DNA of 64,000 nt from Escherichia coli (lineage in GTDB: Bacteria; Pseudomonadota; Gammaproteobacteria; Enterobacterales; Enterobacteriaceae): the NCBI RefSeq assembly GCF_024700885.2, contig NZ_CP117016.1. One strand, 5' to 3'. The notes under the pieces are model-generated. The model worked only from the letters and a program-made list of their open reading frames with translations, had not been told where the DNA came from and did no database searches. Made by a program: the position numbers and the translations under genes. Shown piece by piece: positions 2,154 to 6,567 of the stretch (position 1 is the stretch's first letter; each line of letters starts with the position of its first letter).

Positions 2154-3383
2154 ATGTCTAATATTTGGTCAAAAGAAGAAACTCTGTGGAGTTTCGCGCT
2201 CTACGGCACAGCCGTTGGTGCAGGCACGCTCTTCCTTCCTATTCAGTTAGGTTCGGCAGGGGCTGTGGTCCTGTTTATTACTGCTCTGGTCGCCTGGCCT
2301 TTAACATATTGGCCACATAAAGCCTTATGCCAGTTCATCCTCTCATCAAAAACATCAGCAGGTGAAGGGATAACGGGCGCGGTAACACACTACTATGGCA
2401 AGAAGATTGGTAATCTGATTACCACGCTGTACTTCATCGCCTTTTTTGTCGTCGTGTTGATATATGCCGTGGCAATTACCAACTCACTTACGGAACAGCT
2501 GGCAAAGCATATGGTTATTGATCTTCGCATCCGTATGTTGGTGAGTCTGGGTGTTGTATTAATCCTGAATCTCATTTTTCTAATGGGACGCCATGCCACT
2601 ATTCGGGTAATGGGATTTTTGGTATTCCCATTGATTGCCTATTTCTTATTTCTTTCTATTTACCTGGTCGGTAGTTGGCAACCTGATCTATTAACTACCC
2701 AGGTAGAGTTCAATCAGAATACCCTTCACCAGATATGGATATCGATTCCCGTGATGGTTTTCGCCTTTAGCCATACGCCCATTATTTCTACGTTTGCCAT
2801 AGACAGACGTGAAAAATATGGCGAACATGCTATGGATAAATGCAAAAAAATTATGAAAGTCGCTTATCTCATCATCTGCATAAGTGTACTGTTCTTTGTC
2901 TTTAGCTGCCTGCTTTCTATTCCACCTTCGTATATTGAAGCGGCTAAAGAAGAAGGGGTTACCATTTTATCGGCGCTTTCTATGCTGCCGAACGCCCCAG
3001 CATGGTTGTCAATTTCCGGGATTATTGTCGCAGTCGTTGCGATGTCGAAATCATTCCTGGGTACGTACTTTGGCGTTATTGAAGGTGCCACGGAGGTCGT
3101 CAAAACAACACTGCAGCAGGTTGGTGTAAAGAAAAGTCGTGCATTTAACCGCGCACTATCAATTATGTTGGTATCGCTGATTACCTTCATTGTTTGTTGC
3201 ATTAACCCGAACGCGATATCGATGATTTACGCGATCAGCGGCCCGCTCATTGCCATGATACTTTTCATCATGCCTACGCTGTCAACATATCTCATCCCGG
3301 CGCTTAAACCCTGGCGTTCCATCGGAAATCTGATTACGCTGATCGTGGGTGTCCTGTGCGTATCGGTAATGTTCTTTAGCTAA
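2154..3383 (+). CDS. yqeG: multi-pass membrane transporter (amino-acid permease-like)
   Basis: 409-aa highly hydrophobic ORF with many predicted transmembrane segments; position after yqeF matches K-12 order. Confidence 0.85.
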   Translation: MSNIWSKEETLWSFALYGTAVGAGTLFLPIQLGSAGAVVLFITALVAWPLTYWPHKALCQFILSSKTSAGEGITGAVTHYYGKKIGNLITTLYFIAFFVVVLIYAVAITNSLTEQLAKHMVIDLRIRMLVSLGVVLILNLIFLMGRHATIRVMGFLVFPLIAYFLFLSIYLVGSWQPDLLTTQVEFNQNTLHQIWISIPVMVFAFSHTPIISTFAIDRREKYGEHAMDKCKKIMKVAYLIICISVLFFVFSCLLSIPPSYIEAAKEEGVTILSALSMLPNAPAWLSISGIIVAVVAMSKSFLGTYFGVIEGATEVVKTTLQQVGVKKSRAFNRALSIMLVSLITFIVCCINPNAISMIYAISGPLIAMILFIMPTLSTYLIPALKPWRSIGNLITLIVGVLCVSVMFFS

Positions 3384-3393
3384 TATCCATTGT

Positions 3394-3436
3394 GAATGGT
3401 TCAAAATTGCTACAATTTTGAACCATTCCAGTTTTC
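3394..3436 (+). terminator. rho-independent terminator after yqeG
   Basis: Perfect 16-bp inverted repeat GAATGGTTCAAAATTG / CAATTTTGAACCATTC with a 3-nt loop, followed by a T-rich tract. Confidence 0.6.
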
Positions 3437-3842
3437 ATAATGTTCATTTGTTATAATTCCGCTCTATCACTTCTCTCGTCATATCCTAGTATTATCAGTT
3501 AGTTAAACACACAAAGAGATCTGAACATCTTAAATAAGACTATTTAAGATGCATAACTTAGATTCGCAAGATATCTTCTGGTCATTCAAAAACAATTTGC
3601 GATATAGATATTCTCATACCATGAGATAGTTATCTGAACCACCATCAACCAGGTAAGATTAAATCAGTGAAACATAATCATATTTAATAACGAGAAATGC
3701 ATTTTTAAATGCTTTACTCAGAATTATAGCAAATACAGATTAATCGCAATTTTTCCCAGCAAAATTACAAAATCATGGTGTATTGACATCATCAATAACC
3801 AATGAAATTATGCAATTATATACGGATAGGGAGGTTCTTAAC

Positions 3843-4475
3843 ATGGGGCTTTGTAGTCGTTATAAAAGTCTTACATGCAATAGTTGCTCAATGCATTGCC
3901 AAATAATGCCAGAAGAGTCACCGCGTTTGCAGTATTGCGCAAACTCGTGTTTTTGTATGTGGCCCGAAGAAAGTTCATATTTTAATCGTGGTGTGGTGGA
4001 AGGTATCTTAACAAAAAACCACAATGCGAGATTAAGCGGATATATTTTTGTCGATTTTTCAGTAAGTTTTTTACGTCTATTCCTTGAAAAAGACTGGATT
4101 GACTATCTTGCAAGTACTGACATGGGGATTGTTTTAGTCAGCGACCGAAATATGCAATCGTTAGCTAACTACTGGCGAAAACACAACTCTGCAATATCTG
4201 CTGTCATATATAATGATGATGGTCTTGATGTTGCCAATGAAAAGATCAGACAACTATTTATTGGTCGTTATTTATCATTTACCAGAGGGAACACATTAAC
4301 TCAGATGGAATTCACCATAATGGGATATATGGTTTCTGGTTATAATCCATATCAGATTGCTGAAGTTCTGGATATGGATATCCGTAGCATCTACGCGTAC
4401 AAGCAACGAATCGAAAAGAGAATGGGTGGTAAAATAAACGAGTTATTTATTCGTTCACATTCGGTCCAACATTGA
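3843..4475 (+). CDS. yqeH: LuxR-family transcriptional regulator (ETT2-island remnant)
   Basis: ORF-track ORF 3783..4475 begins at TTG; the ATG at 3843 (MGLCSRYKSL...) gives 210 aa; C-terminal helix-turn-helix region of LuxR/GerE type (NTLTQMEFTIMGYMVSGYNPYQIAEVLDMDIRSIYAYKQRIEKRM); AT-rich codon usage. Confidence 0.8.
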   Translation: MGLCSRYKSLTCNSCSMHCQIMPEESPRLQYCANSCFCMWPEESSYFNRGVVEGILTKNHNARLSGYIFVDFSVSFLRLFLEKDWIDYLASTDMGIVLVSDRNMQSLANYWRKHNSAISAVIYNDDGLDVANEKIRQLFIGRYLSFTRGNTLTQMEFTIMGYMVSGYNPYQIAEVLDMDIRSIYAYKQRIEKRMGGKINELFIRSHSVQH

Positions 4476-4540: not shown

Positions 4541-4688
4541 CAAATAAGCAGTACCCCCAAGAGTAAACAACATGGTATTTAAAACCATCACACGAAAAAT
4601 TCAGAAGCATTACGAAATATGAATTTACAAACAGGTGATGCTGCCAACTTACTGATTTAGTGTATGATGGTGTTTTTGAGGTGCTCCA

Positions 4689-4964
4689 GTGGCTTCTGTT
4701 TCTATCAGCTGTCCCTCCTGTTCAGCTACTGACGGGGTGGTGCGTAACGGCAAAAGCACCGCCGGACATCAGCGCTATCTCTGCTCTCACTGCCGTAAAA
4801 CATGGCAACTGCAGTTCACTTACACCGCTTCTCAACCCGGTACGCACCAGAAAATCATTGATATGGCCATGAATGGCGTTGGATGCCGGGCAACTGCCCG
4901 CATTATGGGCGTTGGCCTCAACACGATTTTACGTCACTTAAAAAACTCAGGCCGCAGTCGGTAA
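4689..4964 (+). CDS. insA: IS1 InsA (transposition repressor)
   Basis: 91-aa [40 protein letters not shown]... recognised as IS1 InsA; GTG start. Confidence 0.95.
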
Positions 4965-5386
4965 CCTCGCGCATACAGCCGGGCAGTGACGTCATCGTCT
5001 GCGCGGAAATGGACGAACAGTGGGGCTATGTCGGGGCTAAATCGCGCCAGCGCTGGCTGTTTTACGCGTATGACAGTCTCCGGAAGACGGTTGTTGCGCA
5101 CGTATTCGGTGAACGCACTATGGCGACGCTGGGGCGTCTTATGAGCCTGCTGTCACCCTTTGACGTGGTGATATGGATGACGGATGGCTGGCCGCTGTAT
5201 GAATCCCGCCTGAAGGGAAAGCTGCACGTAATCAGCAAGCGATATACGCAGCGAATTGAGCGGCATAACCTGAATCTGAGGCAGCACCTGGCACGGCTGG
5301 GACGGAAGTCGCTGTCGTTCTCAAAATCGGTGGAGCTGCATGACAAAGTCATCGGGCATTATCTGAACATAAAACACTATCAATAA
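4883..5386 (+). CDS. insB: IS1 InsB frame; the transposase InsAB' is made by a -1 frameshift at the TTAAAAAACTC motif near 4936-4946
   Basis: 167-aa ORF matching InsB; A6C slippery motif present in the insA/insB overlap. Confidence 0.9.
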
Positions 5387-5638
5387 GTTGGAGTCATTAC
5401 CCAGTCTGTCGATGACATTACAATGCCAGGATGGGCTTTATCTTCACGTTGTGCTATCGCGGTGTGAGAGGTGCAACTGCCGCCAACGTTAGGTTATACT
5501 GTCATCTCACCGTGTAACTTAACGTGACAGTTACTAAGGGCGGATCACAATGGTAGAACTCCTAAGCAAATTAAATAGGTAACTGTTTAAGTTGCTGACA
5601 GAGAAGACTTTTTTGGTCTTCTCCACCTGGGGAGATTC

Positions 5639-5712
5639 TGGAGCGGGCGAAGGGAATCGAACCCTCGTATAGAGCTTGGGAAGCTCTCGTTCTACCATTG
5701 AACTACGCCCGC
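5639..5712 (-). tRNA. glyU: tRNA-Gly (anticodon CCC)
   Basis: Reverse complement reads GCGGGCGTAGTTCAATGGTAGAACGAGAGCTTCCCAAGCTCTATACGAGGGTTCGATTCCCTTCGCCCGCTCCA with encoded CCA. Confidence 0.95.
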
Positions 5713-5790
5713 TTCGAGATGCGTAAGGCATTATAAACCTTACGCTCTCCTTAGCAAGTGCCGCGCTGCTGACTGCTGATTAATTCGCCA

Positions 5791-6567
5791 TCAGCATTTT
5801 GGCTTGCTGCTCTGAGGCGGCAAGTAACGCAGCGGATCAATTGCCGTAGCACGGTAACGAATCTGGAAATGCAGGCGAACCGATGCCGCATCAGTGCTCC
5901 CCATAGTGGCGATTTTTTGCCCAGCCTTCACGCTTTGCCCATTATTTACCAGCATCGTGTCATTATGGGCGTAAGCCGTAATGTAATCTTCACTGTGTTT
6001 AATCATGATGAGATTACCGTAGCCACGCAGCTGGTTGCCCACATACACCACCTTTCCTGCACCCGCGGCGTAAATAGGTGTACCTCGTGGAGCTGAGATA
6101 TCAATCCCTTTATTGCCGCCATCAGCTGTCGAATACGGCATGATAACTTTCCCTGTCGTTGGCCATAACCAACAACGTTGCCCTACTGGCGGCCAGGAAG
6201 ATTTCGGTACTGCTGATGACGGTGTAACCGATGCGGTTTTGGTCGTTGATTTGGCGGTTGATTTACGTGTACTGCTACTTTTCGCCCCACCCAGTTTTAG
6301 TTTCTGACCAACTTCAATGGTGTAAGGGGGGGAAATGCCGTTCAGTCGCGCCAGCTCTTTTACGCTGGTTCCCGTGGTGCGCGAAATACGATATAGCGTA
6401 TCCCCCCGTTTCACGGTGTAAACGGAGCCGGAATACGTTCCTGTATCGGATGATTTGCTACCCGAGCAGCCCGCCAAAAGCAGTCCAACCGATAACAACA
6501 TCACGATACCCAGAGATTTTTTATTCAGGCGTCCCGCACTCAAAATCTTTCCTCGCTTAAAAAACAA
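5791..6567 (-). CDS. ygeR: LysM-domain / M23-family peptidase lipoprotein
   Basis: 258-aa ORF; lipobox LLLAGCSG; LysM motif (YTVKRGDTLYRISRTTGTSVKELARLNGI); M23 peptidase-like C-terminus. Confidence 0.85.
   Translation of the reverse strand: MFFKRGKILSAGRLNKKSLGIVMLLSVGLLLAGCSGSKSSDTGTYSGSVYTVKRGDTLYRISRTTGTSVKELARLNGISPPYTIEVGQKLKLGGAKSSSTRKSTAKSTTKTASVTPSSAVPKSSWPPVGQRCWLWPTTGKVIMPYSTADGGNKGIDISAPRGTPIYAAGAGKVVYVGNQLRGYGNLIMIKHSEDYITAYAHNDTMLVNNGQSVKAGQKIATMGSTDAASVRLHFQIRYRATAIDPLRYLPPQSSKPKC

Follow-up and report, generated by a model that had tools for sequence, protein, structure and literature searches.

Organization of the glyU Locus

The window analyzed here, by which we mean the whole 64,000-nucleotide stretch of the Escherichia coli contig NZ_CP117016.1, shows around the tRNA gene glyU the order yqeG, yqeH, IS1, a segment of 237 bp, glyU, actS (ygeR), and xdhA (Table 1). 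This layout was 100% identical to that of strain MLI114 and 99.6% identical to that of SMS-3-5. The gene yqeH is the sole gene of the ETT2 region remaining at the yqeG side, and comparison with K-12 showed that the window lacks any ETT2-region gene between yqeH and glyU; in the list of ORFs of the window, no integrase was found in this same interval. The glyU gene is encoded on the minus strand, and its 3′ CCA end, as located by ARAGORN and Rfam, corresponds to position 5639.

A preliminary description of this DNA, made from the sequence alone, had placed about 237 bp without ORFs between IS1 and the 3′ end of the tRNA-Gly gene, with a hairpin at about 5601–5623. The length was correct, and the hairpin is found at exactly those positions, with 8-bp stems and the loop TTTTTTG. 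The absence of ORFs was also essentially right, as the only ones that touch the segment are a 34-amino acid ORF with a TTG start located inside IS1 and a 65-amino acid ORF of the minus strand that runs through the tRNA gene, both of which we judged to be spurious, leaving the segment without any credible ORF.

Table 1. Coordinates of the features at the glyU locus and protein assignments in the parent element; positions are those of the window.
Feature	Position	Strand	Details
yqeH	3783–4475	+	ORF; RefSeq annotation of identical loci in MLI114 and SMS-3-5; K-12 map
IS1, complete	4634–5401	+	768 bp, IS1A-type; ends GGTGATGCTGCC and GAGTCATTACC
Element-derived segment between IS1 and glyU	5402–5638		237 bp; probable relic of a tRNA-proximal arm
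Block common to both element variants	5408–5638		231 bp
ATAGGTAACTG, 11-mer, candidate arm-type integrase motif	5575–5585	+	inverted partial copy ACAGTTAC at 5527–5534
Perfect 8-bp inverted repeat with 7-nt loop	5601–5623		GAGAAGAC (5601–5608), TTTTTTG (5609–5615), GTCTTCTC (5616–5623)
att core TGGAGCGGGCGAAGGGAATCGAA	5639–5661		23 bp; glyU 3′ end, T-arm to CCA; single copy in the window
glyU, tRNA-Gly(CCC), intact	5639–5712	−	ARAGORN; Rfam RF00005, 71.6 bits
Tyrosine integrase (element)			406-aa ORF adjoining the distal repeat; PF00589 (E = 6.8e-12) and DUF6538; phrog_1 integrase (E = 7.8e-38)
Dit-like tail protein (element)			PF21821
Tape-measure-like protein (element)			phrog_16051
E-type major capsid protein (element)			PF03864
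Serine invertase/resolvase (element)			PF00239
Replication-initiator-like (Rep-like) protein (element)			NC101 element

Distribution of the Segment

A megablast search detected the segment in 265 out of 5,426 complete E. coli genomes, always in the chromosome and with one copy per genome in all the carriers except one. Identity to the segment of the window was ≥99% in 189 genomes and fell in the 90–95% band in another 52; there are essentially two haplotypes. At every examined locus the segment adjoined glyU, the exception being strain 22AR0118, in which it has been displaced by a later island. With carriage in 265 of 5,426 genomes, the segment is therefore neither universal core sequence nor a general trait of ETT2-bearing strains.

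No match to the segment was found in 50,697 phage records or in IMG/VR, and these sequence collections contained no excised or circular attP form either. Among the GTDB species representatives, a search with the pattern of the hairpin region yielded one further match, corresponding to a divergent Escherichia genome (L008) that also carries the genes of the element described below, and none in other genera.

A Phage-Like Element Inserted at glyU

In strain NC101, which belongs to phylogroup B2 and has no ETT2, the segment closes, on the glyU side, an insertion of 12,372 bp that has an exact copy of TGGAGCGGGCGAAGGGAATCGAA at each border (L005 28338–28360 and 40710–40732). These are the only two copies of this sequence at the locus, so the segment lies inside the element, which extends along L005 28338–40732. 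The island-free strain UPEC 536 provided the corresponding empty site, as it presents yqeG, a 315-bp spacer, and glyU, and lacks the segment. Its spacer is identical to and collinear with the NC101 sequence from yqeG to the distal repeat, with divergence starting exactly after the 23-mer; therefore, NC101 corresponds to 536 plus the element, and the block is internal to the latter. The finding that the preliminary description had set against its own proposal, that of native sequence next to glyU in island-free strains, was thus not what UPEC 536 showed.

Starting from the distal repeat, the NC101 element encodes a tyrosine integrase, a Dit-like protein, a tape-measure-like protein, an E-type major capsid protein, several small hypothetical proteins, a Rep-like protein, and a serine invertase (Table 1). 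Our attempt to class this parent element by its capsid failed, as the protein is less than 25% identical to that of any cultured phage and its best matches are large Pseudomonas myophages (about 92–99 kb). No terminase or portal was recognized among the ten ORFs of the element that were scanned, and the element may be an uncharacterized phage satellite rather than a decayed prophage. In addition, about 2 kb of the NC101 element (L005 36865–38881 and 39500–39700) has neither annotated genes nor ORFs longer than 75 amino acids; parts of this gene-free sequence are 83–87% conserved between the variants of the element, with no Rfam match. The invertase gene is succeeded by a run of AT-rich repeats of the TATTTA type, which may represent an origin or iterons.

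In strain 504838, the end of the element is 100% identical to the segment of the window, compared to 90% for NC101. There, the order is ETT2 genes for the type III secretion system (T3SS), a GH15 gene, the native flank, a copy of the tRNA end that matches 22 of the 23 bp of the glyU 3′ end, the integrase, the rest of the element, the 237 bp, and glyU, the whole element covering approximately L006 5470–20260. The genes that follow the integrase encode the Dit-like, tape-measure-like and capsid proteins, succeeded by an IS1 copy and, further along, the invertase. The integrase end of this strain has suffered heavy nested insertions (L006 5577–11721), the integrase gene being split by an element of the IS3 family, after which come a fragment of ISEc52 and a group II intron (ltrA).

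The window-type and NC101-type variants of the element share the same gene order and are 66–88% identical over their shared genes. Copies that look intact are those of NC101 and, for the window type, of strains 2015C-3101 and ETEC4068. Just inside the block, the window-type variant carries a gene for a yecR-like lipoprotein and an 85-amino acid ORF, and the NC101-type variant a 99-amino acid ORF. The two sequences cannot be aligned for about 0.75–1 kb to the left of the block, and they become 90% identical from the equivalent of position 5408 of the window up to the tRNA gene.

The preliminary description had also expected an att-like repeat beside the tRNA 3′ end. Such a repeat does exist, exact over 23 bp in NC101 and over 22 of 23 in 504838, but its core lies inside the tRNA gene (5639–5661) and not in the 237 bp. 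A direct repeat of the glyU 3′ end at a distal boundary, the check then proposed, was not found in the window, where no second copy of TGGAGCGGGCGAAGGGAATCGAA was detected even when up to three mismatches were allowed.

The segment could also be native core DNA downstream of glyU that has been lost or replaced in most strains, given that it abuts the tRNA gene, that it acts as the flank to the later island of 22AR0118, and that it is present in the divergent Escherichia genome. However, it is missing from the empty site of UPEC 536, whose sequence runs collinear with that found outside the distal repeat of NC101, and the two tRNA-end repeats, the only ones at the NC101 locus, place the block within the element. 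Moreover, the segment of the divergent genome is accompanied by genes of the element, and the hairpin region is absent from all the remaining GTDB species representatives. No genome was found in which core DNA runs straight into the block and glyU with neither element genes nor a repeat, and we consider a native origin very unlikely.

Native Flank of glyU and Relation to ETT2

The sequence beside the 3′ end of glyU in K-12 differs from that of the window from the first base onward. This K-12 flank has its homologue in the part of the 536 spacer nearest to the tRNA gene, with a 78-bp indel, and represents the native flank of the gene. The K-12-type native flank abuts glyU in at least 3,443 genomes, including EDL933, and a diverged version of it is present in B2 strains such as 536. 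The native flank of K-12 corresponds to L004 14922–14984, and the 315-bp spacer of UPEC 536 to L007 2724–3038.

K-12 keeps ETT2 remnants up to ygeQ, and from 63 bp (K-12) to 141 bp (the 536 type, which includes the 78-bp indel) of native flank lie between ETT2 and glyU; thus, the insertion point of ETT2 is not the 3′ end of the tRNA gene. No repeat of the tRNA end was found at the borders of ETT2. The left boundary of ETT2 is located about 175 bp after yqeG (window 3383–3556).

The preliminary description had taken the 237 bp as the part of an island left on the tRNA side, implying ETT2. The first half of this proposal stood, as the segment, absent in UPEC 536, is island-derived; the second did not, as K-12 and EDL933 carry the native flank instead. 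As to the suggested check against ETT2-positive genomes, the two strains just named showed this other flank, and the segment itself was limited to the 265 carriers indicated above. That the segment is the tRNA-proximal end of ETT2 itself would agree with reports of ETT2 as adjoining glyU (PMC2808357, PMC11068852) and with the persistence of yqeH on the other side of IS1 in the window. Against it, K-12 shows the native flank beside glyU, as do at least 3,443 genomes, EDL933 among them; the segment occurs in just 265, and in 504838 the native flank, the tRNA-end repeat, and the integrase all separate ETT2 from the segment. The GC content also differs, being 45% in the segment versus 36.5% in the yqeH region. 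With this evidence, an ETT2 origin is extremely unlikely and, in practice, refuted.

IS1 as a Probable Deletion Scar

The IS1 copy of the window is not flanked by a target-site duplication, the left flank being TTACAAACA and the right one CAGTCTGTC, so it lacks the 8–9-bp repeat of a simple insertion. The left junction lies in the intergenic spacer between yqeH and yqeI, as deduced from the alignment to K-12, which continues with unrelated sequence. The right junction is located inside the element, since 504838 and four other carriers run on leftward with element sequence. Both junctions were found together in the same five of the 5,426 genomes, SMS-3-5, MLI114, 98232, GIMC1405:EC_Lstone01, and WWCOL-236, and no genome of the 5,426 had just one of them, as an intermediate would. 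The simplest reading is that this IS1 would be the scar of an IS1-associated deletion in a single lineage, whether it took place in one event or in several.

Such a deletion would span from yqeI onward, taking away ETT2 together with the native flank, the att repeat at the distal end, the integrase, and the rest of the element up to the 237 bp, either as an adjacent deletion or by recombination of one IS1 copy with another. The ancestor would have had the order yqeG, yqeH, ETT2, native flank, 23-bp repeat, int, the body of the element, the 237 bp, and glyU, an arrangement with both ETT2 and the full element that is taken from strain 504838, which is not a sister of the SMS-3-5/MLI114 lineage. 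The anatomy of the junctions is read directly from the genomes, and the order of events is what we infer from it.

From these data, the most probable identity of the segment, to which we assign a probability of about 0.85, is the tRNA-proximal attachment arm of an approximately 12.4-kb phage-like integrative element of the GI-glyU type, left behind by an IS1-associated deletion. As it is the end of a separate element whose remainder has been deleted, the segment is best read as a dead att arm, equivalent to the P arm of attP and now forming part of an att junction with a single side. In this genome it is a non-mobile relic, because no integrase, partner att site, or cargo remain.

The IS1 junction (5401/5402) is only 6 bp away from the left limit (5408) of the conserved block. 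This proximity is not expected of a random deletion endpoint.

Hairpin and RNA Structure of the Segment

The hairpin at 5601–5623 starts 15 nt downstream of the CCA end of glyU, and in RNA of the tRNA sense its stem lengthens to 12 bp through G-U pairs. A perfect 8-bp stem with a loop of 3–10 nt appeared in 2.2% of the shuffled versions of the segment, and the same class of stem was present in 20 of the 270 window tiles of 237 bp; the hairpin is, therefore, only mildly to moderately unusual. Folding of a 79-nt region in the tRNA sense gave z = −2.2. The whole 237 nt of the plus strand are rich in inverted repeats and gave z = −3.3, with none of 200 shuffles being as stable. The stems of the hairpin are identical in both variants of the element, and the loop differs by a G/A change.

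A second, imperfect inverted repeat of 17 nt, ACGTTAGGTTATACTGT / ACCGTGTAACTTAACGT, was observed at 5486–5525. As read from the alignment, it is kept in the NC101 variant by replacement of an A-T pair plus a G.T pair with a G-C pair plus a bulge.

The hairpin is not followed by a U-tract on either strand, the tRNA-sense sequence continuing with UGUCAGCAAC and the plus strand with CACCUGGGG, and a terminator scan of both strands over 5300–5900 gave no call. Consequently, an intrinsic (rho-independent) terminator, for glyU or for inward transcription, was ruled out. A known RNA family was also discarded, as Rfam returned tRNA alone both for the region of the window and for the 4 kb of non-coding sequence of the intact element. 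Since the DNA immediately downstream of glyU comes from the element, the hairpin belongs to the 3′ trailer of the gene in these strains, and any part it plays in processing or termination is putative.

That the block has been retained for an RNA function, as 3′ trailer or terminator of glyU or as a structured non-coding RNA, is improbable in our view. The position of the hairpin with respect to the CCA end and the folding scores of both the 79-nt and 237-nt regions would fit such a function, as would the invariant stems, the hairpin at 5486–5525 kept in NC101, and the IS1 junction at 6 bp from the boundary of the block. However, neither a U-tract, nor a terminator call, nor an Rfam family other than tRNA was found, and a promoter-like site at 5524–5551 is not conserved in NC101. 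In addition, only two haplotypes exist, about 90% identical and thus too few for real covariation, and at about 10% divergence the absence of changes in the 16 positions of the stem is estimated to be expected around 18% of the time. Inverted repeats are, moreover, equally expected in att arms that bind proteins. A more specific proposal, that the 231-bp block is a structured module borne by the element that replaces the glyU 3′ trailer or encodes a small RNA and that has been selectively retained, we regard as quite improbable. If true, it would explain why no other non-coding part is as well conserved between the two diverged variants and why the IS1 deletion halted 6 bp outside it.

The Segment as a Probable Attachment Arm

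Under the preferred reading of a dead att arm, the tyrosine integrase of the element would recombine within the last 22–23 nt of glyU. Integration would rebuild the 3′ end of the tRNA gene from the copy brought by the element, moving the native flank, together with any ETT2 behind it, farther from the gene. In an intact element, the block would carry accessory sites for the integrase and its cofactors. A conserved non-coding module that adjoins the core and gives way inward to variable cargo has the appearance that would be expected of an attP arm.

The 11-mer ATAGGTAACTG has a second, equally oriented copy in the arm next to the integrase of the window-type variant (L006 5539–5549), and both copies are located 47–64 bp from the core. 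For this motif, chosen post hoc, sharing between arms had P = 0.008 in shuffles. NC101 presents copies with 1–2 substitutions at the equivalent positions, and k-mer sharing between its two arms was not above that of shuffles. Given this non-significant test in NC101, ATAGGTAACTG is kept solely as a candidate; with a copy on both arms, it could be a site for the integrase or a cofactor in the intact element. No IHF consensus was found, allowing up to one mismatch.

Any role that the segment has today would plausibly be just the passive one of a glyU 3′ trailer.

glyU as an Integration Hotspot

Strain 22AR0118 contains an unrelated 4.3-kb island inserted at the same 23-bp core (L003 6075–10392) and flanked by repeats of it, with genes encoding a 541-amino acid integrase, a DUF4145 protein, and a KilA-N protein. 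Its insertion displaced 74 bp of the segment together with a partial tRNA end of 23 bp. This displacement and the resulting tandem accretion are the behavior expected of DNA located just outside a tRNA core. The arms of this island carry GGTTACAG-type repeats, and another IS1 of this strain abuts the block at the equivalent of position 5565. The second island type adjoins glyU in 384 of the 5,426 genomes. The glyU att core of the window is still a usable target for new islands.

Discussion

Lambdoid and P4-type elements encoding tyrosine integrases integrate in the 3′ ends of tRNA genes, following the Campbell model. Sublocation classes of such tRNA integration sites were reportedly distinguished by K. 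P. Williams in 2002. The glyU element resembles these systems in that its repeat is the 3′ end of the tRNA (T-arm to CCA, 23 bp), that the element restores the tRNA, and that an empty site is available for comparison. In addition, like the P arm of lambda, it has a conserved non-coding arm of about 230 bp beside the core, at the end opposite to int, with variable cargo just inside. Unlike lambdoid and P4-type elements, the glyU element is known from sequence alone, with no IHF consensus and just a candidate arm motif, and the arm of the window is orphaned, with neither integrase nor partner site.

IS1 mediates adjacent deletions as well as recombination between IS1 copies. As in such deletions, a complete IS1 without an 8–9-bp duplication joins in the window regions that are not contiguous in other strains; compared to the classical cases, the mechanism here is deduced from the scar, and no intermediate genome was found.

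The original survey of the attrition of ETT2 is said to be that of Ren et al., of 2004. The window parallels the usual course of that process in that almost all of ETT2 is lost and an IS element marks the scar, and it differs in that the deletion seems to have taken a second, unrelated island too, from which the residue at the glyU side derives. The mutational attrition of ETT2 has been reviewed (PMC11068852, PMC3977695).

GI-glyU is listed among the mobile elements of the E. coli ST101 strains MS6192 and MS6193 in a preprint (bioRxiv 10.1101/860726) that does not describe att arms. By megablast, MS6192 carries an NC101-type block beside glyU, and its GI-glyU is therefore probably a member of this element family. 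A limited literature search yielded no description of the att arm or of its stacking with ETT2.

The segment is, in conclusion, an ordinary scar left by a deletion at a tRNA gene that is a hotspot of integration, and its importance goes little beyond correct annotation. The parent element, a 12-kb capsid-encoding island without close phage relatives of which the window holds 237 bp, may merit study. As for the E. coli genomes of the SMS-3-5 lineage, the DNA adjacent to glyU would be the scar of a second mobile element once stacked between ETT2 and the tRNA gene, and ETT2 typing based on the "glyU junction" can be misled by a stacked-element scar of this kind.
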